From Shigella phage ChubbyThor: a stretch of DNA of 64,000 nucleotides. The notes below the pieces were generated by a model. It saw nothing but the letters and a program-made list of their open reading frames with translations, did not search any database and was not told the DNA's origin. The stretch is taken from sequence record OL615013. One strand, 5' to 3'. Of the stretch, positions 1,045 through 63,870 are shown piece after piece (position 1 is the stretch's first letter; the number at the start of each line of letters is the position of its first letter). The translations under genes were made by a program, and so were the position numbers.

Positions 1045-1214
1045 TTGAAGATCTCTACAGCGAACCCAATCGCGAAGTAGAGGGCGGCCACGCCGATAAG
1101 AGAGCAGCACACCATCTCCCTGACTTTGGACTCCCTGCTCATCTCGTATACCCCCAGTAACGCGTCAAAGAACATGAAGACACTAATGGCCAACAACAGA
1201 TGATCCCAGTTCAT
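1041..1214 (-). CDS. small hydrophobic membrane protein (57 aa, two predicted TM segments)
   Basis: Not in ORF track (short); ATG at 1212-1214 overlaps stop of 1211..1525 ORF (ATGA) and its own TGA overlaps ATG of DUF4326 gene; translation MNWDHLLLAISVFMFFDALLGVYEMSRESKVREMVCCSLIGVAALYFAIGFAVEIFK. Confidence 0.45.
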   Translation of the reverse strand: MNWDHLLLAISVFMFFDALLGVYEMSRESKVREMVCCSLIGVAALYFAIGFAVEIFK

Positions 1215-1525
1215 GACATATCCTCATGGTTAGACAGACTGATCAAGAAGGACAGATTCCGGTCATGTATGAGGTCAATGGCCTTGCGGCTGCCCACGGC
1301 ATCACATGTCCAACAACTGTAATTCCCCGCGATCTTCAATGCTAATCTGACGACATGGCGTCTCATATTGTACTGAGCCAACTGATATCGGGCACGTGTC
1401 TTCTTGCGCCAGCACTGATTCTCAGCAATGTATTTGTAGAGAATCATCAACCGGACGGCTTTGTACAGGCGCTTTTCAGCGCCCTTGGATTTCTTTGAAA
1501 CACGGATCAGACTACCCATGATCAA
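1211..1525 (-). CDS. hypothetical basic protein (104 aa)
   Basis: ORF track; start overlaps end of gp46 ORF. Confidence 0.4.
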   Translation of the reverse strand: MIMGSLIRVSKKSKGAEKRLYKAVRLMILYKYIAENQCWRKKTRARYQLAQYNMRRHVVRLALKIAGNYSCWTCDAVGSRKAIDLIHDRNLSFLISLSNHEDMS

Positions 1526-12338: not shown

Positions 12339-13169
12339 TCATTGGAATTCAACTCCATACCTTTCAAGCCATTTATCACAAGTTAAAGGATCCCAACCAT
12401 TATCTAACCTTCGAATAATCGGATTCACTTTAGCCCAGATCCCAGAAGAATTGGAACCGAATACTTCTTTAATGGCTTCTCCCTTGGTCTTACCTTTCAA
12501 TATATGGTAATGTATGTGGGCTGCCCAACACCACCAATTATCCCTATCCGGAGTCCATCTTGGCTTCTCCCAAGGCATTTGCTCTCTGGAGGTTCTGGTA
12601 AAAGCCTCAACACGTTTCCTTTCTTGGTCCGATGTCAATTTATTGGTTAGGCTCTTTCCATAACAGTGATGGTGCTCTCCTCTCTTGACACCTGCATTTC
12701 TCTTCGCAAAGAATTGTTTCAGTTCAGGGTCTTCCTTGCGCTTGTCTTCATAGAATTTCAGCAGTGAATCTGAAGTTGCATCTTTGGCTGCCTGAGACTT
12801 CTTTTTACCATACATCGGGTTGTTAGCCCCTCTGTTCTCTTCGGACAATCTCGCGGCGTATTTCTTACGCATTTTGGCGAAGAGATGTGAATTAACTCTG
12901 TGGCCATTCCTTCTCAGGATCATCAGCGCCTTTACCATACACGTATCCGGCAGCGCCAGAGCGAGACACACGTGAGCAATATAGTGGACGCGGTGTGGTA
13001 ATTTGATTAAATTGTTCTTATCTTTCTTGAATTGAGGAAATAGGGCGGCTGGAAGGATGTGGTGAAATTCTCCTTCCCCGTTGTAATCTGAATAGGCTGA
13101 AAGCAATTTCACATATTTGCCTACAAAGTGCGGTTTGCCACCTATTGTTAAAAGATATTCTCTTTTCAT
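12339..13169 (-). CDS. HNH-type homing endonuclease-like protein
   Basis: N-terminal EFHHILP...NNLIKLPHRVHYIAH (HNH pattern); NPMYGKK DNA-binding repeat like those in the GIY-YIG endonuclease at 32793. Confidence 0.6.
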   Translation of the reverse strand: MKREYLLTIGGKPHFVGKYVKLLSAYSDYNGEGEFHHILPAALFPQFKKDKNNLIKLPHRVHYIAHVCLALALPDTCMVKALMILRRNGHRVNSHLFAKMRKKYAARLSEENRGANNPMYGKKKSQAAKDATSDSLLKFYEDKRKEDPELKQFFAKRNAGVKRGEHHHCYGKSLTNKLTSDQERKRVEAFTRTSREQMPWEKPRWTPDRDNWWCWAAHIHYHILKGKTKGEAIKEVFGSNSSGIWAKVNPIIRRLDNGWDPLTCDKWLERYGVEFQ

Positions 13170-18538: not shown

Positions 18539-20203
18539 TCAGATTTGTGATGCCAGTTCTACTACGAGAGGAGCGGCACGGACACGCGCATCTTCCAGAG
18601 TTTGAGTGTTGAAGAACTTGCCGTCACGATACACCAGCTGGTGCTGGTTGTCGGCGTCTTGCACCTGATCAAAGGTGATACCGTCAACCAACACTAGTTT
18701 ACCCTGAGAGTCTTTAATGACTTTAAGGAAACCACGCGCAGACTTTTTAGTCCCGCCTTTGTCGGTCTTCGGCTCTTTGAAGATCTCACGGAATTCGCCG
18801 TTCACCTTACCAGCCGTTGCTTTCACCGCCGTGCCAGTACTGTCACGGGTGTTCATCTGGTAGGTGTAGGAACCGATACCGAACACCACGTTGATGGAAG
18901 CGAAGTTCCGGCCAGCCAGACGACTAAAGATCTGGTCTTCACGTGCCAGGGTGATGGAGTCACCGTAGATCAGACCGATGTGTTCGTCCAACAGGAAGTG
19001 GCCAGTTTCAGTTTGAGTACCGCCAAAGATCTCCCACAGGCGCTGGATAGAGCCGACTGCTTCAGAACGGCTGATGATATTACGGTCGTCTGCCATCAGA
19101 GAGTTGATCGTGCCTTCGCCTGTGATCAGGTGATAGGTGTTCGTCTCTTCGATGTGAATGACTTCAGTGCTGCTAGACACGCCGCTGATGTTCAGCGTGG
19201 CGCGGTCTTTGAACCCCTCAATGCGGTAGCCGCCGACGATATGAACTGGGTCGCCCGAGTCAGGGCGGATCACGACTTTACCGTTACGCGCCATGATAAT
19301 GTCTTTCAGGCGAGGGAGATAGTCGTCGATGACCTGCCAGTAATCCCACGCATCAGACACGATGCTGACGATGCCATCAGGATACACGTCCTGCACCAGG
19401 CGGCGGAAGGTTTCGAATTCGCCATCCTTCGTACCCATACACATCACGGCGTGTTCGGTAGCCGCAACAGAACCAGCAACGACATAGTCTTCGTCGATGT
19501 CTGCGCCATAATACTCTTCTACGAAGTCCAGGGCAGGGTTGGTATCGGTGCCTTTGAAGAACACCAGATGACCGGAACCGGAAGACGCCGCGTCATGCCA
19601 TCCACTCATGCCACGGAAGGAGAAGTCGTGGCCTTGGTAGTCGATGAACCAATGGTCCGGCGACACGCCTGTAGCGAGGGCAGCTTTCACCATCAGTGCC
19701 TTGTAATGCAGGGCGATGGTGGCGTTCGTCATCGGCTTCCAGATCTCAGAGCTGAACACAGTCTCCAGATAGTTGGTCAGCCAGTAGAACTCCGGCAGGG
19801 TGTTGAACATCACATACACCGGAACGCCATATGGGCACATGGTGCCTTCAGGCAGAGCACGGACTTCGATAGGCAGGTAGCCGAGGTCATGCAGGGCTTC
19901 AATATGCTCTGTGCCGACGCGGCCTGGACCCAGGACTTTGTTCATGCGACGGGCATACTTCTTCAACACCTTGGCCTTTGGGCGCTGGAAGAATGCTTCG
20001 TCAAACAGTTCGTGGAACCAGGTCATGAAGCCCTGGATGCCCCAGACCACCACGCCGTTCTTCGGCAGGTGAGAGTTGAACAGTTTGTTGGAGCGCGGAG
20101 TTCCGTTGGAGAACACCAGCTCGCTGCCTTCAGGGAACTGATAGATGTGCCCTGATTTGTAGAAGTCGATTGCATGGATTGGGTCTAAGTGGCGCATGCT
20201 CAT
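18539..20203 (-). CDS. nicotinamide phosphoribosyltransferase family protein (NadV/Namat-like)
   Basis: NAMPT-like motifs DFSFRGMSG, VSDAWD, RPDSGDP, GLIYGDSIT; 4-nt overlap with upstream PRPP-synthetase-like gene. Confidence 0.8.
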   Translation of the reverse strand: MSMRHLDPIHAIDFYKSGHIYQFPEGSELVFSNGTPRSNKLFNSHLPKNGVVVWGIQGFMTWFHELFDEAFFQRPKAKVLKKYARRMNKVLGPGRVGTEHIEALHDLGYLPIEVRALPEGTMCPYGVPVYVMFNTLPEFYWLTNYLETVFSSEIWKPMTNATIALHYKALMVKAALATGVSPDHWFIDYQGHDFSFRGMSGWHDAASSGSGHLVFFKGTDTNPALDFVEEYYGADIDEDYVVAGSVAATEHAVMCMGTKDGEFETFRRLVQDVYPDGIVSIVSDAWDYWQVIDDYLPRLKDIIMARNGKVVIRPDSGDPVHIVGGYRIEGFKDRATLNISGVSSSTEVIHIEETNTYHLITGEGTINSLMADDRNIISRSEAVGSIQRLWEIFGGTQTETGHFLLDEHIGLIYGDSITLAREDQIFSRLAGRNFASINVVFGIGSYTYQMNTRDSTGTAVKATAGKVNGEFREIFKEPKTDKGGTKKSARGFLKVIKDSQGKLVLVDGITFDQVQDADNQHQLVYRDGKFFNTQTLEDARVRAAPLVVELASQI

Positions 20204-21054
20204 TTTACACGTCCTGTATTTTCAGTTTTGAAAGGAAGACCGTCGGCGGTGATATTCTCCCACCAGACAGTGTCGGCATACACAGCATCGTAAATCCCGT
20301 CGAAAACAGAGAGACCTTTGCTGAAGATGCCATGGGTAACGAAGAGCGTCATGTGTTTGGGCTTGTGCTTCTGAAGCTCTTTGCCTAACTCAACGAACGT
20401 GCGCCCACCGTCGCAGATATCATCAACCACAACCAGATAGCGGTCTTTGATCAGTTCAGGGTTTGTAATGCTCACCCCAATGATCTCACCAGTCTTGGTG
20501 TCACGGTTCTTGTGTCCGTAGACAACAGGAACACCATCCAGAGACAGGCTGAGGGCTTCGGTCTTCTTCGCCGCGCCACCGTCAGGGGCTACCAACACAG
20601 CATTGTTCCCACGGATGAACCAGCCCAGATACTGACGCACGATGTAATCTTGCGGGACAACATGGACGTTGTTGATCAGAGAAGTCACAACATGGCTGTG
20701 AGGGTCTTTGATCGCCACGCGGTCAAAGTTCATGCTATTGATGAACTCAGCCGCCCACTTCACAGACAGAGGCTCGCCGAAGTCGCAATGGCGGTCCTGG
20801 CGAGCATACGGGAAGTAAGGGATATACGCATGGAATGTCGTCAGACGATCCACGTTGCCCAGGCCACGCACGGCGTTTACCAGAAGCGCCAGCTCAATGA
20901 AGTCGGCTGATGATTTGATGTGAGCATCAATCACCACGTTCTGGACGTGACCGACAGGGATGCCAGCCTTTTGGATCTTGATATGTTCCTCACCACCTGG
21001 GAAGGTGAAGTGCTTGTAGAACACATCTTGGTCGTTCAATTTCAAACGAAACAT
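20200..21054 (-). CDS. ribose-phosphate pyrophosphokinase family protein (Prs/Adps-like)
   Basis: PRPP-binding motif VVVDDICDGGRTF and VLVAPDGGAAKK; size typical for Prs family. Confidence 0.8.
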   Translation of the reverse strand: MFRLKLNDQDVFYKHFTFPGGEEHIKIQKAGIPVGHVQNVVIDAHIKSSADFIELALLVNAVRGLGNVDRLTTFHAYIPYFPYARQDRHCDFGEPLSVKWAAEFINSMNFDRVAIKDPHSHVVTSLINNVHVVPQDYIVRQYLGWFIRGNNAVLVAPDGGAAKKTEALSLSLDGVPVVYGHKNRDTKTGEIIGVSITNPELIKDRYLVVVDDICDGGRTFVELGKELQKHKPKHMTLFVTHGIFSKGLSVFDGIYDAVYADTVWWENITADGLPFKTENTGRVK

Positions 21055-32050: not shown

Positions 32051-32793
32051 CGATCCGGCCAGACTCCGTTCTGTTCTTTATCCATGCGATGGTACAGACG
32101 AACACGCTCAAACATCTTTGTCAGGATGTCATCGCGGTTGAACTCTATGATGGTTGGCGTCAACGATGACTCGTTGGCAATCACATTGATGAGGCGGGTG
32201 ATCTTGACACCGAACATCTGCTGGAACATAACAGAGTACAAGCACAGCTGGATACTGTAGTCCTCGATCATTCCCCGCGTCTTCATGGTGTTCGATGTCT
32301 TGAAGTCGATGATAGCAGGCTTACCCTCATAAACCCCGATAAGGTCCACTCGACCTGCGAGACCAAGCACCTCGCTATATAACGGGATCTCCTGAGCATA
32401 GATCTTTGTCATCTTGTTCAGATAGGGGAACAGCTGCTTGAACATGAACATGTATTCGCCAGCCGCTTCCAACACTTCTTTCATTGGGCGGTTCTTCAAA
32501 TACAGTTCACATGCAAGGTGCAGCTTCTCCCCTCGGTCAGCGCAACGCATGGTCTCAAGGTCGGCGGCCTCTGCACCCAGCTTCTCCCTCCAAGCCTCAA
32601 GCCATTCATGATCACCAGTACGCCCCAGCATCGTCGTGACAGACGTCAGCTTGACACCAGTTGGTGACACATAATGACGACCGTTCTCCGTCGTCACACA
32701 CTCCAGTTCCTTATGAGGAAGTTCGTACTGCTGGAATGTGTAATGACGATTTTCGAAGTCGTTCAGCTTGCGCAGGGCTTGGAGAGATGCCAT
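32047..32793 (-). CDS. PD-(D/E)xK nuclease (RecB/Cas4-like exonuclease family)
   Basis: GRVDLIGV...IIDFKTS (D...D/E.K) and QLCLYS (QxxxY) motifs. Confidence 0.6.
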   Translation of the reverse strand: MASLQALRKLNDFENRHYTFQQYELPHKELECVTTENGRHYVSPTGVKLTSVTTMLGRTGDHEWLEAWREKLGAEAADLETMRCADRGEKLHLACELYLKNRPMKEVLEAAGEYMFMFKQLFPYLNKMTKIYAQEIPLYSEVLGLAGRVDLIGVYEGKPAIIDFKTSNTMKTRGMIEDYSIQLCLYSVMFQQMFGVKITRLINVIANESSLTPTIIEFNRDDILTKMFERVRLYHRMDKEQNGVWPDR

Positions 32794-33515
32794 TATGTAT
32801 AATCCTTGACAAAGTTATTCCATGCTTCGTCCTCATAAGGATTCCAGCCGGATTTGAATTTGTTAACCATGGCTTGAGACACTCCGATTTTTATACCCAA
32901 TCCTTTATGAATTCTGTAATATCCATGCCCCGCTTTCCAACATTCGAAAGCACTGTCTGCGAATTTCCATTGTTCTCTAGAACCGTATTTTATAGTGGAT
33001 GGGTTATCCCAAGGATGACATCCTTTCATGGGAGATGATTTGCCAAACCAATAGTTCCTTTCACCACCGTTCATTCCTGGGAAACGTTTCCCAAACATTG
33101 GGTGTTCTTTACCCTTTCTTCCTTTCAGGGGACCAGGTTTCCCATAACCGTGATGAAGTTCGCCTCTCTTCCCAAACATGGGGTTCTTTTCGGCGGGGAG
33201 GCTGGTCGTCAACCATATGTCTTTGTCGTTATCTTGAAAATGCCGATTCAAAAGACCTGGTGTTCCCCACAAAGCCTTTATCCTTTCTTGTTCGACTCTG
33301 TATGCTTCTCCCACAGTAGAAAATACTTCTAAATGGTCAACAGAGAAATATTCATCCCCAAACTCTTTTATCATTCTTTGAACGATTTTAGAAGACGTGA
33401 AATATGTGACCCAAAATTCCTTTGGATCACATTTCTTGGCAGTACGAGAACCGATGTATACTTTACCATCTTTGGTGACGACACGGTATACATATGGGAT
33501 TCTATCATGCACCAT
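32793..33515 (-). CDS. GIY-YIG homing endonuclease (Seg-like) with NUMOD-like repeats
   Basis: N-terminal YVYRVVTKDGKVYIGSR; three NPMFGK-type repeats; start moved to ATG at 33515 with GGAGAAAG SD. Confidence 0.75.
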   Translation of the reverse strand: MVHDRIPYVYRVVTKDGKVYIGSRTAKKCDPKEFWVTYFTSSKIVQRMIKEFGDEYFSVDHLEVFSTVGEAYRVEQERIKALWGTPGLLNRHFQDNDKDIWLTTSLPAEKNPMFGKRGELHHGYGKPGPLKGRKGKEHPMFGKRFPGMNGGERNYWFGKSSPMKGCHPWDNPSTIKYGSREQWKFADSAFECWKAGHGYYRIHKGLGIKIGVSQAMVNKFKSGWNPYEDEAWNNFVKDYT

Positions 33516-33957
33516 CGAGGTACTTTCTCCAATCAATCGCATTCTTCACTTCGTATCCCAGCTTGTTCAGGCGATCCAAACAAGTCTCGATGAACTTGAC
33601 TTTTGCTTTTTGTTCTTGTAACAGAACAGACAGTTCTACATAGTCATCGTCGGCTTTGACCCATGTGTCCAGGTCAGACTTCAGGGGGCGAACCTTCAGG
33701 GGGCGCTCTGCGTAGATGTTCGGGGGTAACTCCCCTGCATAGTAGCGGCGCAGATAGAGATCGATCTGGCGGAAGCGCCCGTTGAGGAATTCAAGATAAC
33801 GCCCCTCACGCAGATAATGCCGTTGTACGGCCATCCAAGAGCGCCCGATTTTCAGTGAGATCTGGTCAAGGTTCATGTCTTCTGGGTCCACTGTAATCAG
33901 CGGCTCCAGTTCGTTCATGATGTCCTCGGTTGCCATTGTCTGTAGTTGTTCTTTCAT
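33505..33957 (-). CDS. uvsY: UvsY-like recombination mediator
   Basis: Recalled resemblance to T4 UvsY (LYLRRYYAGE vs ARLDYYSGRG; C-terminal CLDRLNKLGYEVKNAIDWRKY); same 150-aa size class; downstream of uvsW region. Confidence 0.55.
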   Translation of the reverse strand: MKEQLQTMATEDIMNELEPLITVDPEDMNLDQISLKIGRSWMAVQRHYLREGRYLEFLNGRFRQIDLYLRRYYAGELPPNIYAERPLKVRPLKSDLDTWVKADDDYVELSVLLQEQKAKVKFIETCLDRLNKLGYEVKNAIDWRKYLDGA

Positions 33958-38276: not shown

Positions 38277-38339
38277 GACACAGCCCTCGGATAGTAGACG
38301 GGGCAATAATACCTCTCGCCCCGTTATTGAAATGATCTT

Positions 38340-39812
38340 TTAGTTCAAGGTATATTTGATCAGACCACAATTCCAAATCCTGACCAGCCCGGCTTCGGTT
38401 GCTAACTGGCTTTCTGTTTTGCCTTCTATGTCATAACCCATCCTAGCAAATGAATCTTTTCTGAAACCGAACTTGTGCTCACGCATAAATGTACCAGGCT
38501 TGTGATATTTGTAATCCGGCTTCTGTACTTCCTCTTCTATGAACCCGTGGGATAGGTAAATGTTCGACAGCCTGCTTACGACACACCTGTCGCCAAAAGA
38601 ATAGATTGGGACACCAACAAATTTCCTTCTGAAGTGCGATAGAAGTTTACTGAACGCCCCGTGGCAATCATTAGAGGCAAATCTGACTAATTCCAGGCCA
38701 TCTTTCCTTTTGGTAAACAACATCACAGCCTGTATCACACCAGCCTTATCAATTAGCGATAAGTGGTGGGTGGACGACACGGAACCTTGTATATGATGGG
38801 CGTCTAGAAACTCCCTCACACCGTTTATATTACCCCAAACAACTTTATGTTGGCGAGCGTATGAGACAGGCGTTTTAATGCCGAGTTTTGCCTTCAGAAG
38901 AGATTTGACCACATCCTGTTTCTCAGCCCATTCGTCTTCCCAAATATGGATCAACTGGATACCCTGAGATTCACACATTTCAGTCTTTTCTAGATGATAC
39001 CGTTTTTCTTTAAAAACTTCTGAATGCCAGTACAACCCATTGAATTCTATTGCAAGTTTGTGTTCCGGGCAGTAGATATCCAATTGTTTGCCTGACAATA
39101 TACTGTAATCAGAAACCTTGTTCACAACTCCTATTGAGGTGAGGAACTCGGATATTTCTTTTTCATAAGAAGATTTCTTATTCCTGACAGAACCATTGTT
39201 AAACAATGCACGTTTCAATATGATCGAGTTTTTCATGGGATTGTCAACACCATAACGTTCTTGTAATGTTATCAACGCCTTCTTCCTCACACCAGGTAGT
39301 TGTAGTGTAGAGCAGCTCCCATATTTGGATATATTTGAAGCCTCTATAGCTTTCCGACCAACCCCGCCTTTACACATAGAAATCTGATAACATTCTTCGG
39401 AACAATATGTTCTGTAATCTTTGTCATTGATGTAAAAGTTGGTTTCTTTGGAACACACAGGGCACATTTTCACGGTTCTATTGTGTAACCATGCTGTGAC
39501 TTTACAGGCCAGATCTTGTAGGGTGTTATGGGCGTTGGCAAATATCAACAGGTCCAATCTGATGTGCTTCATTAACAAATTAGATTTGCATTTCTGAATA
39601 TCCAATTTGTTGTTCTTAGTGAACATGTGTTTATGGAAAAATTGACGATAAGATTCTTCATCCGAAAGGCACGTCGCATCAGCAACAAATTCCGGTGATA
39701 GATTTTTCAATGTGTTGCTAGAAAACGTTTTACAACCATCTGAACAAAATTTCTTATCTTTCCTGGATGCTTTGAACTGTTCATGACAGACACTACAGAT
39801 TACCTGATACAT
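38340..39812 (-). CDS. putative freestanding endonuclease: N-terminal zinc ribbons plus Vsr/DUF559-like PD-(D/E)xK domain
   Basis: CxxC pairs (CSVCHE...CSDGC, CPVCSKE...CSEEC); LDIYCPEHKLAIEFNGLYWHSE matches Vsr/DUF559 core; AT-rich by eye; inserted beside gp23. Confidence 0.45.
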   Translation of the reverse strand: MYQVICSVCHEQFKASRKDKKFCSDGCKTFSSNTLKNLSPEFVADATCLSDEESYRQFFHKHMFTKNNKLDIQKCKSNLLMKHIRLDLLIFANAHNTLQDLACKVTAWLHNRTVKMCPVCSKETNFYINDKDYRTYCSEECYQISMCKGGVGRKAIEASNISKYGSCSTLQLPGVRKKALITLQERYGVDNPMKNSIILKRALFNNGSVRNKKSSYEKEISEFLTSIGVVNKVSDYSILSGKQLDIYCPEHKLAIEFNGLYWHSEVFKEKRYHLEKTEMCESQGIQLIHIWEDEWAEKQDVVKSLLKAKLGIKTPVSYARQHKVVWGNINGVREFLDAHHIQGSVSSTHHLSLIDKAGVIQAVMLFTKRKDGLELVRFASNDCHGAFSKLLSHFRRKFVGVPIYSFGDRCVVSRLSNIYLSHGFIEEEVQKPDYKYHKPGTFMREHKFGFRKDSFARMGYDIEGKTESQLATEAGLVRIWNCGLIKYTLN

Positions 39813-39867
39813 AATTGTTCTCCTTCGTATGGTATCTAGTATAACCTGTTTGGTATTATGAACAAAT

Positions 39868-39890
39868 AAAACCCCGCCGAAGCGGGGTTT
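39868..39890 (-). terminator. intrinsic terminator downstream of major capsid gene
   Basis: CCCCGC / GCGGGG stem with CGAA tetraloop, A/T extension; minus-strand RNA continues UUUUAUUUGUU. Confidence 0.65.
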
Positions 39891-45744: not shown

Positions 45745-46452
45745 TTACACAATTCTAATTAGCTGCCAACCCGTCGTGTTCAAACGCTCTGCGGTCGCAG
45801 TTTTCCTATGATACACAGACGGCGGTGGAACTGGAATACCCTTGTCGATGTAATCATACAATGCTGAATATTTAAGTCCCAACCTCTCCACGTATTCACG
45901 ACAATTCCCGTGGATTTCGTGTTCTTCGCCGGATGGAGATACCAATTTGAATCGCTTGGCGTTTCCGTTTTGTTCTCCAACGCGTTTCCCCTTCCAGTAG
46001 CCCGACATACACTTCTTGTATTCGTCTGGCCTGGGCTTTCCTTTCAGACAATGTATGATATCTCCAGATTCCCATCTGGGGTCATCTAACTCTACCGCGC
46101 CCAACCTTTGACCAGAAATCGAATCAATCGCTCCGGCCTTTCCTCTTGTTGTCTGCCCGTCACCGCCCCAAGTCTTGTTGTACCCCCGCTGGGTGGACAT
46201 GTGGGTTCCGTGTTGCTTTATAAGAATGATTTCCAATTCTTTTAGATCTTCCACGGAATAGGTCTGGGCTAACACTTGAACAGAAAAGGACTCTTCTCCG
46301 TACTTTCTTATTGCTTGGTGAATAAAGTAATCAGATCCCTTCTGAGCACTATTGCAGTGCTCCCACCACCTTTGCATAGGGTCTCTCGTCGTTATCCCGA
46401 TATAGGCTTTCTGATTGACGAGATTTGTAATTTTGTAAACACTTCCGATCAT
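45745..46452 (-). CDS. GIY-YIG homing endonuclease inserted between tail sheath and tail tube genes
   Basis: N-terminal SVYKITNLVNQKAYIGITT with downstream RWWEH; C-terminal basic region. Confidence 0.8.
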   Translation of the reverse strand: MIGSVYKITNLVNQKAYIGITTRDPMQRWWEHCNSAQKGSDYFIHQAIRKYGEESFSVQVLAQTYSVEDLKELEIILIKQHGTHMSTQRGYNKTWGGDGQTTRGKAGAIDSISGQRLGAVELDDPRWESGDIIHCLKGKPRPDEYKKCMSGYWKGKRVGEQNGNAKRFKLVSPSGEEHEIHGNCREYVERLGLKYSALYDYIDKGIPVPPPSVYHRKTATAERLNTTGWQLIRIV

Positions 46453-48485: not shown

Positions 48486-50705
48486 TCACCGTCTCAGCCA
48501 TTCTTCCATGGACATGCCAGAGCGTTCGTCATACACCTGAACTCCACCAAACCCTGGGATACTCTCTATAGAGTGAGGATCTGGTGTTGAAAGCACACCC
48601 CCGAAAGGTAACATCTGAGATTCTTCCATCGCAGATAATCTTCCTCTCATGTCCACAGAGATACTTGAGTTTGTGAGATCACTAAACCATTCTTGTTTCA
48701 CCGCCCATGCATAGAGCACGAGAGGCATCACACAGTCATCATGACAACCATCATCGGCTTCATACCTTGTCCCAGTCCATACGAATGTACTGAGTTCATC
48801 TATCGTGTCTTGGTCATCAACCACCAGCATCTCACGTTCGATAAGCGCCTTGAGGTTAGCACAACCATTCGAACGCACTTTCTTGTTCGTGTTGATGCCA
48901 GGCTCAGGGCGGCGGCCACCAATTCGTTTGCCAGTACCCTTCGCATCTGTGGTAGTGAAGATGATCTCCGGGTATTCAATTTCCTGATATAGAATTGTGA
49001 TCACCTGGCCACCCACGTCGTTGTTGGTTTCAACCAACATCGGACACGTGCCATACTTCTCGCCCATGTCGGCGATAGTGTATGCATACATCATTGGAGG
49101 TATCGTGTTGTTCCGATACTTGGCTGCAATCTTGTGAGGATAGTCTGTGATATCCAAGATGGTCAGAACAGAGTAATCCCCCTCCACACCTTTGCCTGTA
49201 TCGGCGATACCCATGTAGATGCGCTTCGGATCGTAATCGTGGTAGATCTTGGTGAACTCGTTCGGCTCCTGATAGAGTTTCGAGGTCATCTTGTCTAGAC
49301 ACTTGGCAGGTATCAGTGATCCTACAGAACCACGGAACTTGATACCGAATTCCTGATCGAAACGTGCATCGCCCAGCTTCGCCCTCTGTTTGGATTCCCA
49401 GTTCGGATCCTTGGTGTATGTTGGAACACGATACCATGGAACCTCTGTGAGTTTGAAGTCGTTGTATTGAGGATGCTCTGGGTTCGCCTTGGTGACGATG
49501 TCGTAGAACAACCCGCGCTGACCTTTCGGCGTACTGGTCAGGATACAACGTGATGTCTCTGCAGATGCAATCGCTGGGAATGTGGACTCCCAGAATTCAA
49601 AGTCATTTTCGATGAACGCCACTTCGTCTACATACAGAAGCGATACAGATCGACCACGGATGGAGTCAGAGGATGTCGCATAAGCATAGATCTTCGACCC
49701 GTTTTCGAATTCAATCAACGTGGAGCCGAACTTCTCACAACCCTGTTGGAGGAAGAATGGCAAATCCTGGTATGCCTTGCGGATACGGTCTAGGATTTCA
49801 ATCGCCTGCTTCTCTTTGTTCGCCAGTACCGCGATCTCTTTGTCAGAGTGGAACATCGCATACCAGAGCAGGAACGCTGCTACGACTGTCGTGTTGTGGC
49901 TGAGGAAGCCGTTGGTGTAGTAGCGCTGATCACTAGATTTCACCTGCAGGTCAAACATGTGATGCATCTCACCAGTCTGCCATACCTCAACGACTTCTTC
50001 TAGACCTTCTTCGGTCATTAGCCGTGAACCAGCAACCAGATCTTTAGCAAACACTTCCTTCATGTTCTGATTGAAGAACATGTGATCATCGGCCACGTTG
50101 ATACGACGACCACTGGAAGTGATGACAACGTACTCTTGGTACAGCTTAGTCTTGTGCGCGGCGATGACAGGCACCCAGCCTTTGTCACAGCGAACAAAAT
50201 AACGCTTGCCGAAGCGGCTGTCTACGAACTTATCGTGTTTGCCAAAGGCATTCAGTGGCTCGGCGTGATTTGGTCCCTCGAAGCGGCTGTGAAGCTCCTC
50301 GATGGTGACTTTAAACTCTTCTTGGCTGAACGTATCGTAAACCTCGACGATGCTGTCACCCTTCACACACTTACCAGACTGACGCGCCTGAACCACGGCG
50401 TTGAAGCGGTGATCCTGGAAGTCATGGAACAGCTGCTTCTGATAATCATGCATATCGAAGAGGATGAAGCCCTTATCGATGGTCGTGATCTTGTAGTAGT
50501 TGGCGGCGAAGTAATGAGCGTCCATCGCGCACTCAACGAACTCCGATTCTTGATCGTCGGTCAACATCAACTCTACACGAGGAGCACGCACAGACGGCTT
50601 GCGCATGAACGTCTGGTCCATACGCAATCTGACATCATCAATCTTGAATCCCGTCTTTATCGGGGCATATTCAATATCACGCTTCTGATACGCCATCGTC
50701 TTCAC
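48486..50705 (-). CDS. 17: terminase large subunit (T4 gp17-like) interrupted by a mini-intein
   Basis: ARQSGK then 159-aa insert then TTVVAAFLLWY, versus T4 Walker A SRQLGKTTVVAIFLAHF; C-terminal nuclease region present. Confidence 0.85.
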   Translation of the reverse strand: MKTMAYQKRDIEYAPIKTGFKIDDVRLRMDQTFMRKPSVRAPRVELMLTDDQESEFVECAMDAHYFAANYYKITTIDKGFILFDMHDYQKQLFHDFQDHRFNAVVQARQSGKCVKGDSIVEVYDTFSQEEFKVTIEELHSRFEGPNHAEPLNAFGKHDKFVDSRFGKRYFVRCDKGWVPVIAAHKTKLYQEYVVITSSGRRINVADDHMFFNQNMKEVFAKDLVAGSRLMTEEGLEEVVEVWQTGEMHHMFDLQVKSSDQRYYTNGFLSHNTTVVAAFLLWYAMFHSDKEIAVLANKEKQAIEILDRIRKAYQDLPFFLQQGCEKFGSTLIEFENGSKIYAYATSSDSIRGRSVSLLYVDEVAFIENDFEFWESTFPAIASAETSRCILTSTPKGQRGLFYDIVTKANPEHPQYNDFKLTEVPWYRVPTYTKDPNWESKQRAKLGDARFDQEFGIKFRGSVGSLIPAKCLDKMTSKLYQEPNEFTKIYHDYDPKRIYMGIADTGKGVEGDYSVLTILDITDYPHKIAAKYRNNTIPPMMYAYTIADMGEKYGTCPMLVETNNDVGGQVITILYQEIEYPEIIFTTTDAKGTGKRIGGRRPEPGINTNKKVRSNGCANLKALIEREMLVVDDQDTIDELSTFVWTGTRYEADDGCHDDCVMPLVLYAWAVKQEWFSDLTNSSISVDMRGRLSAMEESQMLPFGGVLSTPDPHSIESIPGFGGVQVYDERSGMSMEEWLRR
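49893..50369 (-). mobile_element. mini-intein (about 159 aa, no homing-endonuclease domain) in the terminase Walker A P-loop
   Basis: Insert starts with Cys (codon 50367-50369) right after ARQSGK, ends MFDLQVKSSDQRYYTNGFLSHN (block F/G-like, terminal His-Asn, codons ending 49893), followed by Thr +1. Confidence 0.75.
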
Positions 50706-51378
50706 CTTCTTCCTTCGGCTCTGCCTGAACTTCGATTACATCTTCTTCGGGATCAGGTCCTTTGGACGCAGCTTTCGCTGCAGTACGTTCTTCAGCACGT
50801 TTACGGGCGTCTTCGATGGTCTTCAGTAGATCACGGGAAGACCTGGCCTGTTTGCCGACGTTGACCGTGGTTGTACCATCAGGGGACGTGGTGACCTCGA
50901 CAGTTGTTTCGTCCCCAGGAGGTGGCTCTTTGTCGCCTGTAACAGCCTTGATGGTCTTCTGGTTCTCCATCAGGTCTTTGTTCAGACCGCGCATGAGTTC
51001 GCCCAACTCTTTGAAGACTGTGAACGCGCGGGGTGCTTCAGTCGTCGTCGCGAGTTTGGCCGCCTGCCCCATCATGAACATCGTGGCTTCCTGCATGGCA
51101 TAAGTCGTGTCACGGATGCGTTTGTAGTCGGTGGTGGCGTCCGTGTCTTCGAAGTCTGGAACCTTAGATTCCTTGGACTTCAGCTCTTCTGGGTCCAGAG
51201 AAGGAGGGAACACCACAGGCTCATACCCTGCAGGCTTTTCACCCAACCATTCGCCTGTATCCGGATCATAATCTTTTCCAGCCACAGGCGAGGTCTTCTC
51301 CATGACTTCTTGAGCGACCTCATCCCGCGCTTGGATAGCACCGAGGGTGGACAATAGGCGTTCTGACATAGCACTCAT
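50677..51378 (-). CDS. 16: terminase small subunit (T4 gp16-like)
   Basis: AMQEATMFMMGQAAKLATTTEAP resembles T4 gp16 core; overlaps gp17 start; track start is TTG, moved to ATG at 51376-51378. Confidence 0.65.
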   Translation of the reverse strand: MSAMSERLLSTLGAIQARDEVAQEVMEKTSPVAGKDYDPDTGEWLGEKPAGYEPVVFPPSLDPEELKSKESKVPDFEDTDATTDYKRIRDTTYAMQEATMFMMGQAAKLATTTEAPRAFTVFKELGELMRGLNKDLMENQKTIKAVTGDKEPPPGDETTVEVTTSPDGTTTVNVGKQARSSRDLLKTIEDARKRAEERTAAKAASKGPDPEEDVIEVQAEPKEEGEDDGVSEA

Positions 51379-61113: not shown

Positions 61114-61143
61114 GTGAATCTCCTGTTGTTATTCTCAATGGAA

Positions 61144-61161
61144 AAGCCCCCGAAGGGGCTT
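61144..61161 (-). terminator. terminator hairpin between the two tailspike-like genes
   Basis: AAGCCCC / GGGGCTT stem with CGAA tetraloop. Confidence 0.5.
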
Positions 61162-61164
61162 AGC

Positions 61165-63870
61165 TTAGTTAACGGAATCGAGAGAAGAAATCAATTTCAA
61201 ATTGATCTGTACCTGAGACTCCGCAGTTACAGCAGGAATAGCCAGACCACCAGCATTAAGCCCAAAATTCGCAATAAAGCCAGTAGTTGAAGATCTCACT
61301 ACGTCAAATCCTGTACCGCCTGAGCCGGTGCTTGCAAATTGAGTCTGCTTAGCACCGAAAGCATCACCCGTACCAGCTATTGCTACTTGCCAAATACCAC
61401 GGAATAACGTAGCCGCAATATTAGCTGCCGCAGCGCCAGCAGCACGAGTGATCTTCATGTTGTCGTAGAACCAGACTTCCTGAATTGTAGCAATGTTACG
61501 AGCACCGAAACTAACAACTTGGTTCCCTTCAAAGCTGTAGTTAGTTCGGTTATCAACAACAAAATCACATAACATACAGGTCTGGGTAGACACATTAAGA
61601 TCTAAGGTATTTCCATGTGCAATGAGTGACTTAGGAATACCTTGTACGCGGAAACCCGCAGAACGGTATGTAAGATTCAACGTATTTAATTGCTTGATAC
61701 TGTTAGCCATCAGTTTCACACGTTGACCTCGGTATACCATAGTGTTAGCTGCACCTGCGTTAACAATAATACCTTCGGCATTGTTATTAAGCGTATCGCA
61801 CTTCAGCACTACAGTATTATGGCTAATATCAATATCCTGGAACACAGCATAAGTTGCATCCCCTGCTCCGGTACTGATTGCAACACCATCAAAAGCTCGG
61901 AGTTCGCAATAGTTATTATTGATTTTAACAAAAGGATCTGGGTAAGTAGCCTGGGTTGCTTCACCCCCACCACCAACATCAATGCTCCTTGTATACTTGC
62001 CTCCAATTAACAAACCAGTAGTAAAACTGGCAGGTATGTTACGAGAACGCACATAGTTATTGGAAATGATTAAGTTATAAGGTTCATAGTTCGGTGCCCA
62101 ACCCGACCCACATTTAGCATAAATACCTACAACACCATGTTCTAAACACTGGTTATTGGTAATGATCGCCTGACCGCCACCGTGGAAGTCAATACACTTA
62201 CGGCGACAGTTACGAATCATGTTTTCACTGATGGTTACATTACGAATGCGGCGGTTACGTCCATGCGTGATTCCGTAACCAGGATCGTAACTGGCATTCA
62301 GGGTATCATCACCATTCGGGTGACCAATATCTTCAATGTTATTTCCCAGATAAACTAAGCGATAACCAGACAACACATAAATTCCTGCACTGTAACAGTT
62401 ACGAATGTAACACTTGCTTACCATCACACCATCTGGAACATCAGATTCTGTGGTGTAGTCGGCGCTACCGTAAGCTACGGCTGCATTACGGATACCAATA
62501 CCTACAGCACCATAGTTAAAGCCTGTGATGCGGCAACGATTGATTAAAATGCCACGACAAGCACGCTGAACTTTAATACCACAAGCCCAGCTACCGATGT
62601 AACCATTTAAGAACTCACCCCATTTGTTCTGCCAACCTGCTGCTTGGGATCCATCAGCATTATAATTAGGGAATTGTCCTTGAGTACCGTCATAAGCACC
62701 ACTGGTATAGTTGCTGGTATCAAGCCCATTATTAGGTGCAAGTACCATAGCGCTGTCATACCCGAAACGCTCTTCGCCTTTTTCAGCATAACCAGTAGTA
62801 ACATCGATAGCAGGAAATACACCTGGCCCCTGAATTGCTAACTCTACAGTCACGTTTTCACAAGCAATAAGCGCAAGTGCATCCATACCGTGAGTTTTTA
62901 CAATTAAAGTACCGTTGTAAATTTTGATGTTCTTCTTGCCTACTAAAGCCAAGCAAGGACTAAAGTTGTGAGTACCGTCAGAAAAATCAGGTTCAGATGG
63001 ATATTTAGTAGCCAAGTCTGGATTTTTACTGATCAGGTACGTACCACCATAGAGATTAATATCTCCAGTGGATGCATCAAAATAATTTTGAAGCGCTTTA
63101 GTATCATCAGCCTGACCATCAGCTTTTGCTTTAAAATCTTTAGGGCTTAAGTTCTCATTGCCTTTATCCTGGATAGTACGTGCTACCGTATCCGCACCAG
63201 GGGCTTTGTAGCCAACTAAAGATGAACCTGTAGATTTGGCTAAATCTGCACGAAGGGTGTCATCTACGCTTTCTAAAGCCTCATTAATAGTGTTAAGTTC
63301 TTCCTGTACCGTGTTACCGGAAGTTGTACCAATCAGACTTGCGCCTCCATCGGAAGAGAGCGCCAGGTAATTCTGTTTGATGGACATCTCAGCCACAACC
63401 CAAACACCAGCAGCCGGAGATCCATTCAGGAACGACACCACACCAGTCGTTCTGTTGTAGGTGTAATCAACCCCAGGAACCTGGAACTTCCCGTCAATGT
63501 GCAGAGATTGTACACCATATGTCGTGAAGTCTGGGGTGAATGAGGTCTCGCTGCCAACTGCCTGGAACTTGTAGATGCGAATCCCGTTTTCATAATCTTC
63601 TGGTGACAGGATCTTGTCAAATAGGCAGTAAACGACGTCATCTGCTTCAAGAGATCGACCGAGGTTGACTGTGTTCCCATCGATTTCATAGTTGTCAACA
63701 GGAACCTGGACGCCGCCGTTGATGGTGATGAATCCCGTAACAGGATAGAACGGGAGGGAGATAAACGTCTCTCCACCCGTTGCTGTGTAAGTGTATGGAA
63801 TCTGGTGCGGGGCTGTTACAACCGCTCCAAAGATGCTCTCGACGTTTCTGGTCATTTGAAGATACCCCAT
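61165..63870 (-). CDS. tailspike-like protein with right-handed beta-helix region (putative depolymerase)
   Basis: PbH1-like repeats (IRNCYSAGIYV, ISENMIRNCRRKCIDFHGGGQAIITNNQCLEHGVVGIY, IISNNYVRSRN); 901 aa. Confidence 0.6.
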   Translation of the reverse strand: MGYLQMTRNVESIFGAVVTAPHQIPYTYTATGGETFISLPFYPVTGFITINGGVQVPVDNYEIDGNTVNLGRSLEADDVVYCLFDKILSPEDYENGIRIYKFQAVGSETSFTPDFTTYGVQSLHIDGKFQVPGVDYTYNRTTGVVSFLNGSPAAGVWVVAEMSIKQNYLALSSDGGASLIGTTSGNTVQEELNTINEALESVDDTLRADLAKSTGSSLVGYKAPGADTVARTIQDKGNENLSPKDFKAKADGQADDTKALQNYFDASTGDINLYGGTYLISKNPDLATKYPSEPDFSDGTHNFSPCLALVGKKNIKIYNGTLIVKTHGMDALALIACENVTVELAIQGPGVFPAIDVTTGYAEKGEERFGYDSAMVLAPNNGLDTSNYTSGAYDGTQGQFPNYNADGSQAAGWQNKWGEFLNGYIGSWACGIKVQRACRGILINRCRITGFNYGAVGIGIRNAAVAYGSADYTTESDVPDGVMVSKCYIRNCYSAGIYVLSGYRLVYLGNNIEDIGHPNGDDTLNASYDPGYGITHGRNRRIRNVTISENMIRNCRRKCIDFHGGGQAIITNNQCLEHGVVGIYAKCGSGWAPNYEPYNLIISNNYVRSRNIPASFTTGLLIGGKYTRSIDVGGGGEATQATYPDPFVKINNNYCELRAFDGVAISTGAGDATYAVFQDIDISHNTVVLKCDTLNNNAEGIIVNAGAANTMVYRGQRVKLMANSIKQLNTLNLTYRSAGFRVQGIPKSLIAHGNTLDLNVSTQTCMLCDFVVDNRTNYSFEGNQVVSFGARNIATIQEVWFYDNMKITRAAGAAAANIAATLFRGIWQVAIAGTGDAFGAKQTQFASTGSGGTGFDVVRSSTTGFIANFGLNAGGLAIPAVTAESQVQINLKLISSLDSVN

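Follow-up and report, generated by a model that had tools for sequence, protein, structure and literature searches.

A predicted class 1 mini-intein in the Walker A motif of the T4-type large terminase of Shigella phage ChubbyThor

The large terminase subunit (TerL) is the most common intein host in mycobacteriophages, and the position between the lysine and the threonine of the P-loop is a 'classic' site of intein insertion (Kelley et al. 2016, PMC5050341). Efficient splicing in a reporter was shown there for five inteins of mycobacteriophage TerL and terminase-like proteins (PMC5050341). In the Ackermannviridae, the 2013 GenBank records of Salmonella phages Maynard (KF669654) and Marshall (KF669653) describe an 'intein-containing terminase large subunit, intein from Cys110-Asn268', and the Maynard record also carries mature-peptide (mat_peptide) features for the intein. 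The genome announcements of Maynard, Mooltan and Magnus mention the element, with Magnus being explicitly compared with Ag3, while no mention of it was found in the Ackermannviridae reviews and comparative papers searched. Here, we describe the corresponding locus of Shigella phage ChubbyThor in a 64,000-nucleotide (nt) stretch of record OL615013 (hereafter the window), where a 159-residue insert interrupts the ATP-binding loop of a TerL of the T4 gp17 type. This insert is very probably a functional class 1 mini-intein made up of a HINT splicing domain only, and we infer splicing itself from its conserved residues and established intein chemistry.

Insertion site and host gene

The insert lies in frame and splits the Walker A motif between Lys and Thr, with junctions that read ...NAVVQARQSGK / CVKGDS...YYTNGFLSHN / TTVVAAFLLWY. 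T4 gp17 aligned with the open reading frame (ORF) in two stretches, query residues 32-113 to ...SRQLGK(T) and query residues 271-679 from (K)TTVVAIFLAHF, and because these meet at the adjacent gp17 residues 166/167, the insertion is clean, far beyond chance. Alleles without the intein occur among close relatives. For example, ARQSGK/TTVVAAFLLWY, the predicted spliced product of the ChubbyThor TerL, is found at this point in the metagenomic TerLs P0015-P0019 (575-581 aa; extein identity 73-85%) and in Vibrio phages such as D524. In the DNA of the intein-free alleles, the insertion site is GGTAAG/ACN in all cases, and the gene order gp15-terS-terL-sheath is unchanged on the intein-free contig of P0015 (L007). 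The element interrupts, in frame, a conserved site in a protein that has intein-free homologues. A first-pass annotation of this DNA had placed a 159-residue insert at 49893..50369 (residues 113-271 of ORF 48486..50705, minus strand) and had described it as a mini-intein inserted in the P-loop; the coordinates were confirmed, and the alignments to T4 gp17 and to the close intein-free alleles show a clean insertion.

The features of the locus are as follows.

48486..50696, minus strand: terL precursor gene (large terminase of the T4 gp17 type), 736 aa from ATG 50696
50370..50696, minus strand: N-extein coding part, residues 1-109, ending ...ARQSGK; Walker A through the invariant Lys (AAG, 50370-50372)
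49893..50369, minus strand: mini-intein, 159 aa, 18.5 kDa; Cys1 is TGT (50367-50369) and the terminal His-Asn is CAC AAC (49893-49898)
50082..50093, minus strand: intein block B, A93-D94-D95-H96, with A93, D94 and H96 invariant in 27 alleles
49893..49961, minus strand: intein blocks F and G, H137-M-F-D140-L-Q-V...Y-Y-T-N-G-F-L-S-H158-N159, placed by conserved residues and profile alignment
48486..49892, minus strand: C-extein coding part, from Thr+1 (the Walker A Thr; ACG, 49890-49892) to the stop codon
50677..51378, minus strand: terS (gp16-type small terminase), Pfam DNA_Packaging 30.5 bits (cut-off 25) and Ag3 annotation

The host protein is identified by its sequence as a T4 gp17-type large terminase with predicted ATPase and RNaseH-like nuclease domains. 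The flanking parts matched Pfam Terminase_6N (62.9 bits) and Terminase_6C (27.8 bits), each above its cut-off, the T4 gp17 structures (PDB 3ezk and 3cpe) matched ORF residues 32-679 (E = 1e-63), and the gene order is gp15-terS-terL-sheath. The C-extein would carry the remainder of the ATPase domain together with the nuclease domain. In the ORF list, the frame opens at GTG 50705, an alternative start that gives 739 aa, and this part of the first-pass annotation is better revised while the frame itself stands as described: the ATG at 50696, three codons in, is the likelier start because a Shine-Dalgarno-like GAAGGAAGAAGG is well spaced from it, and the same ATG is the annotated terL start in Ag3 and Maynard. 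Counted from the ATG, the intein spans Cys110-Asn268, and counted from the GTG, it spans Cys113-Asn271. The computed masses are 84.6 kDa for the precursor, 66.1 kDa for spliced TerL and 18.5 kDa for the intein, for which about 17 kDa had been estimated initially.

The terL region shares 98.8% nt identity with that of Shigella phage Ag3 (Ackermannviridae, Agtrevirus), and the entire window is collinear with Ag3 at ~65.8-125.5 kb, except for a few insertions and the tailspike region. An antisense ORF of 260 aa (50082..50864, plus strand) overlaps the intein and N-extein coding region and probably represents no real gene, only a chance open frame on the strand facing terL. A search of the window for tRNA genes found none.

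HINT fold, splicing residues and the case for splicing

Conservation was read from an alignment of 27 alleles, which includes same-site inteins with identities of only 32-43%. Twelve positions are invariant across it (C1, A93, D94, H96, M138, D140, Y150, T152, L156, S157, H158 and N159), and Thr occupies the +1 position (alignment column 302) in no fewer than 90% of the alleles. The hallmarks listed in the first-pass annotation (Cys1, a His-Asn C-terminus and Thr+1) are conserved in this set of alleles, as are the block B His and the block F Asp. When a profile of the intein alone was aligned with known inteins, His96 fell on the corresponding block B His in gp41-1, and blocks F and G aligned residue by residue with those of VidaL, gp41-1 and the Cat consensus intein. 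The sole departure from the canonical motifs is in block B, which reads ADxH where the canonical form is TxxH, with Ala invariant in place of Thr; active inteins with a Thr-less block B occur. The class features (Cys1 present, block F reading M-[FY]-D-L-Q-V with Asp140 invariant, no block F Cys and no WCT triplet) are those of class 1, as opposed to class 2 or 3.

The predicted structure agrees with these residues. An AlphaFold2 model of the insert (predicted local distance difference test 95.7; predicted template modelling score 0.88) consists of an all-beta HINT-like chain plus two short helices at about residues 23-43, and a Foldseek search of this model against the PDB returned only inteins or bacterial intein-like (BIL)/HINT domains among the top 50 matches, including VidaL (E = 3e-11), NpuDnaB, gp41-1, RadA, RecA and the Mvu TFIIB mini-intein (template modelling score 0.80). 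A profile of the family likewise matched the gp41-1 intein (6e-11) and VidaL (9e-10) in the PDB. As modelled, the insert has the HINT fold. It is a mini-intein without a homing endonuclease, as first proposed: a Pfam scan of the insert found no endonuclease family (LAGLIDADG, HNH or GIY-YIG), while the LAGLIDADG domain of P0081 was detected as a positive control, and the HINT strands cover the whole 159-aa chain except for the two helices, leaving no room for an endonuclease domain. With the intein alone as query, a word-indexed protein search matched only the Maynard 'intein' mat_peptide and one fragment, and the full-length TerL had to be used to reach homologues.

The residues and established intein chemistry together suggest a four-step splicing route. 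TerL would be translated as an 84.6-kDa precursor with its ATP-binding loop split by the intein, and with the P-loop so divided we infer that the precursor is inactive. An N-S acyl shift at Lys-Cys1 would be followed by trans-esterification, in which the Thr+1 hydroxyl receives the N-extein, then by cyclisation of Asn159, which would free the 18.5-kDa intein, and finally by an O-N shift to form the Lys-Thr peptide bond. The product would have ARQSGKTTVV rebuilt and act as the 66-kDa packaging ATPase/nuclease. The reaction most likely runs autocatalytically and constitutively. Splicing is supported indirectly because viable phages, in ~280 genome records, carry the element, because the intein is under purifying selection, and because the five inteins of mycobacteriophage TerL and terminase-like proteins were efficient at splicing in a reporter.

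Several points weigh against this interpretation. Although the profile check proposed at the outset gave a Pfam Intein_splicing match (PF14890, E = 6.7e-8), its score of 32.9 bits is just under the curated cut-off of 35.8, and the NCBIfam models also fell short (TIGR01445, intein_Nterm, 15.9 versus 24.5; TIGR01443, intein_Cterm, 10.7 versus 15.6); some relatives' records hold a precomputed PF14890 match, marked 'faint' where its strength is given. The missed cut-offs are treated here as a sensitivity limit of generic models, since the fold and the residues are those of an intein. In addition, the literature searched contained no experimental report of splicing for any Ackermannviridae TerL intein, and both the invariant block B Ala in place of Thr and the use of Thr as the +1 nucleophile could slow the reaction. 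Thr is less reactive in this role than Cys or Ser.

A HINT insertion that does not splice, whether a pretoxin HINT domain, a BIL domain or a decayed intein, and either retained or only cleaving, is extremely improbable. Dickeya phage records do give it the name 'pretoxin HINT domain protein', its scores stay below the curated cut-offs for inteins, and there is a weak Pfam PT-HINT match (E = 0.0012, 19.6 bits versus a cut-off of 27.7), but the Intein_splicing match is ~10^4-fold stronger, true inteins are the best structural matches, and every splicing residue is present, including the +1 nucleophile that many BIL domains lack. Furthermore, the GK/T of an essential ATPase is split in viable phages that have been isolated widely, and a permanent 18-kDa insert at this point is incompatible with established Walker A function. 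A pretoxin-HINT or BIL identity was rejected on the grounds that the PT-HINT match is sub-threshold, there is no toxin module, the site is a conserved catalytic motif and the +1 nucleophile is kept.

The first-pass annotation had also held that intein activity would gate DNA packaging, a claim that finds no backing here, as splicing is needed only once to rebuild the P-loop and the sequence shows no sign of regulation. Conditional splicing, with the intein as a switch that delays the terminase until some cue (redox, temperature, DNA or the procapsid) and so times packaging, is considered very unlikely. Inteins do cluster in P-loops, with regulatory roles discussed for some (Kelley et al. 2016, PMC5050341), the precursor cannot possess an intact Walker A motif, and purifying selection retains the intein across several genera. 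However, such selection is simply explained because the intein must splice out of an essential protein, and no sequence feature points to a switch. The only other cysteine of the window intein, C62, is replaced by Ser or Thr in the majority of alleles. A disulfide trap with Cys1 is therefore not conserved, and a redox trap of this kind was rejected. The near relatives without an intein (P0015-P0019 and Vibrio phages) indicate that it is dispensable for the packaging programme, and the tested mycobacteriophage TerL and terminase-like inteins spliced readily with no cue needed (PMC5050341). The simplest reading is that of a selfish element that splices constitutively and is kept since only its precise excision leaves a working P-loop.

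Inheritance, exchange and mobility of the intein

The intein evolves under constraint and for the most part together with its host gene. Its ratio of non-synonymous to synonymous substitution rates (dN/dS) is 0.045-0.18, there are no indels, and it is exactly 159 aa long in six phages of several Ackermannviridae genera, while its dN is ~2x that of the extein. Across 78 allele pairs, intein and extein identities are correlated (r = 0.74), and in every pair but one the intein has diverged further than the extein. In the exceptional pair (P0003/P0010), the inteins are 97.5% identical and the exteins only 86.5%. P0003 is Agtrevirus-like, its extein being 96.9% identical to that of the window, and P0010 is Escherichia phage PhaxI, a Kuttervirus. 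Read in 90-nt steps, the P0003 contig (L010) is of the ChubbyThor type (84-100% identity) throughout except at terL nt ~285-729 (L010 4285..4729), where it is 91-99% identical to PhaxI (L011); the flanks of this tract are only 60-84% identical between PhaxI and the P0003 contig. The intein occupies nt 328-804 of terL; one breakpoint falls in the flank that encodes the P-loop, the other within the intein near its conserved 3' end. This is a clean swap between genera, with a PhaxI-type (Kuttervirus) intein cassette in an Agtrevirus-like terL. A further discordance is seen between PhaxI and LPEK22, which are 99-100% identical in terS and only 59-82% within the intein.

In a neighbour-joining tree of the exteins, built without bootstraps, alleles that lack the intein are scattered among those that have it, implying losses or gains of the intein. 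Other mosaic patches are present elsewhere in terL, and the swap can therefore be explained by ordinary homologous recombination alone, its breakpoints falling in conserved stretches. The intein would be inherited mostly with terL, and recombination between phages that infect the same cell would now and then remove it or exchange it as a cassette. None of the 27 differences between the window and Ag3 falls inside the intein (0/27, binomial P = 0.0014), but a recent transfer of the intein was rejected because these differences cluster at nt 978-1230 and 1572-1728, which reflects general mosaicism. Base composition (0.499 in the intein, 0.494 in the extein) and GC content at third codon positions (0.61 and 0.58) match between the two, so the intein is fully ameliorated and shows no sign of recent foreign origin.

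An intein that is still mobile with the help of a free-standing homing endonuclease acting in trans from nearby ('collaborative homing'), instead of a passive passenger, is unlikely. The near-identity of the cassette at terL nt ~285-729 in PhaxI and the Agtrevirus-like contig within diverged flanks would fit such movement, as would the scatter of intein-free alleles, and free-standing endonuclease genes are common around this module (NUMOD3 between terS and terL in Limestonevirus; GIY-YIG between sheath and tube genes in the window and in PhaxI/LPEK22). Against this, recombination of the kind that left mosaic patches elsewhere in terL suffices, no endonuclease gene adjoins the swapped tract, and intein and extein identities correlate across the 78 pairs with a single exception. 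In the window, terS and terL overlap by 20 nt at the terL start, so no endonuclease gene lies between them; none was found beside terL, the nearest GIY-YIG gene being ~2 kb downstream of the terL stop codon. A trans-acting endonuclease is a possible but unsupported agent of the swap. The broader proposal, that the intein moves among Ackermannviridae genera as a cassette, possibly by such an endonuclease, or that its splicing rate tunes the onset of packaging, is unlikely.

Free-standing endonuclease genes were observed at several other places. Relative to Ag3, the window has a clean insertion of ~734 bp between the genes for the tail tube (gp19) and the tail sheath (gp18), and this contains a GIY-YIG homing-endonuclease ORF (45745..46452, minus strand, 235 aa; 36.4 bits to Pfam GIY-YIG). 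The same intergenic spot holds a different 152-aa GIY-YIG gene in PhaxI and LPEK22 and an unrelated 151-aa ORF on the P0003 contig, and it looks like a hotspot for endonuclease genes. Two further insertions absent from Ag3 encode a 249-aa SegE-like GIY-YIG protein between exonuclease and uvsY-like genes (32793..33542, minus strand) and a 276-aa NUMOD3-motif protein with an HNH-like 'EFHHILP' start (12339..13169, minus strand). Four other segments of the window have no megablast match to Ag3: 1046..1517, 19525..20390, which spans the junction between a nicotinamide phosphoribosyltransferase gene and a ribose-phosphate pyrophosphokinase-like ORF (20200..21054), 38332..39868, and 61141..63349, which lies in the tailspike region.

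In Limestonevirus phages such as Dickeya phage phiD3, terS is separated from the intein-containing terL by a free-standing gene for a 'NUMOD3 motif family protein' (L004 1309..2187), which directly precedes terL; this gene is absent from the window and Ag3. In some Vibrio relatives, among them P0066 (Vibrio phage VP-1), P0083 (Vibrio phage K469), P0087 and P0060, the predicted 'TerL' has a GIY-YIG domain after the ATPase domain, replacing the nuclease domain, which suggests that a homing-endonuclease gene interrupts terL, or is joined to it, beyond the ATPase domain. A P-loop intein is also present in P0060 and P0066. In the metagenomic protein P0081 (925 aa), the insert at this GK site has Ala as its first residue (ALALDTPV...) and includes a LAGLIDADG endonuclease domain; this insert may be an intein that lacks the N-terminal nucleophile.

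TerL is a widely used phylogenetic marker, and the Ackermannviridae are popular phages for biocontrol and therapy. As the intein changes at about twice the rate of the extein, leaving it unannotated or mislabelled, as in Ag3 and many sister records, inflates the apparent divergence of terL, and intein swapping can distort terL trees. Annotators should therefore add mature-peptide features of the kind found in the Maynard record. A compact Cys1/Thr+1 mini-intein from the phage of a mesophilic host, with many allelic variants and intein-less partners, is also a convenient system for the persistence of endonuclease-free inteins, although it opens no new question and its practical consequences are modest.

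Comparison with described inteins

The closest described counterparts are the TerL inteins of Maynard and Marshall (Kuttervirus), which occupy the same gene and the same GK/T site, have the same length of 159 aa and the same numbering from the ATG, and are identical to the window intein in blocks F and G (HHM[FY]DLQVKSSDQRYYTNGFLSHN). With 72% amino acid identity overall, the Maynard/Marshall and window inteins are orthologous or allelic, though they differ at 28% of intein residues versus ~11% of extein residues. The window intein is of the Ag3/Limestonevirus type, being 100% identical to that of Ag3 and 95.6% identical to that of Dickeya phage phiD3. The element is not annotated as an intein in the Ag3 and phiD3 records, and the pretoxin label carried by several Dickeya records is a mislabelling.

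Other inteins at the same TerL site belong to related phages. In the T4-type TerLs of the Vibrio-type relatives P0020-P0027, inteins of 162-179 aa with GK/C...HN/T junctions were read directly, while in Delftia phage PhiW-14, Salicola phage SCTP-2, Campylobacter phages CPt10/CP21 and Agrobacterium phage Atu_ph07 the evidence is a tblastn match under an annotated terL only; the annotation of CPt10 carries the PROSITE protein-splicing signature. All of these inteins are only 27-43% identical to that of the window, and their lengths differ.

The compact, HINT-only splicing domains of gp41-1 and VidaL (PDB 6qaz and 6vgv; of phage or metagenomic origin) are built on the same plan and are the best sequence-profile and structural matches, yet identity to them is only 18-21% and their host proteins are different. 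Both are naturally split, whereas the window intein is contiguous and has an extra helical segment at ~23-43. TerL1-a of the mycobacteriophages and other 'classic' P-loop inteins share the Walker A Lys/Thr site of a terminase ATPase, and in the TerL1-a type, as would be the case here, the active site is built only upon splicing (PMC5050341). The mycobacteriophage host proteins belong to the terminase_1 family and to a different phage group, whereas the TerL of the window is a T4-type Terminase_6 protein, and no close relationship in sequence between these inteins and that of the window came up, though no test was aimed at one. TerL1-b and TerL1-c, which were tested for DNA cleavage, have active endonuclease domains that the window intein lacks (PMC5050341). 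The intein of the window is already known, in that a homologous element at this classic site has been annotated and published for sister phages.

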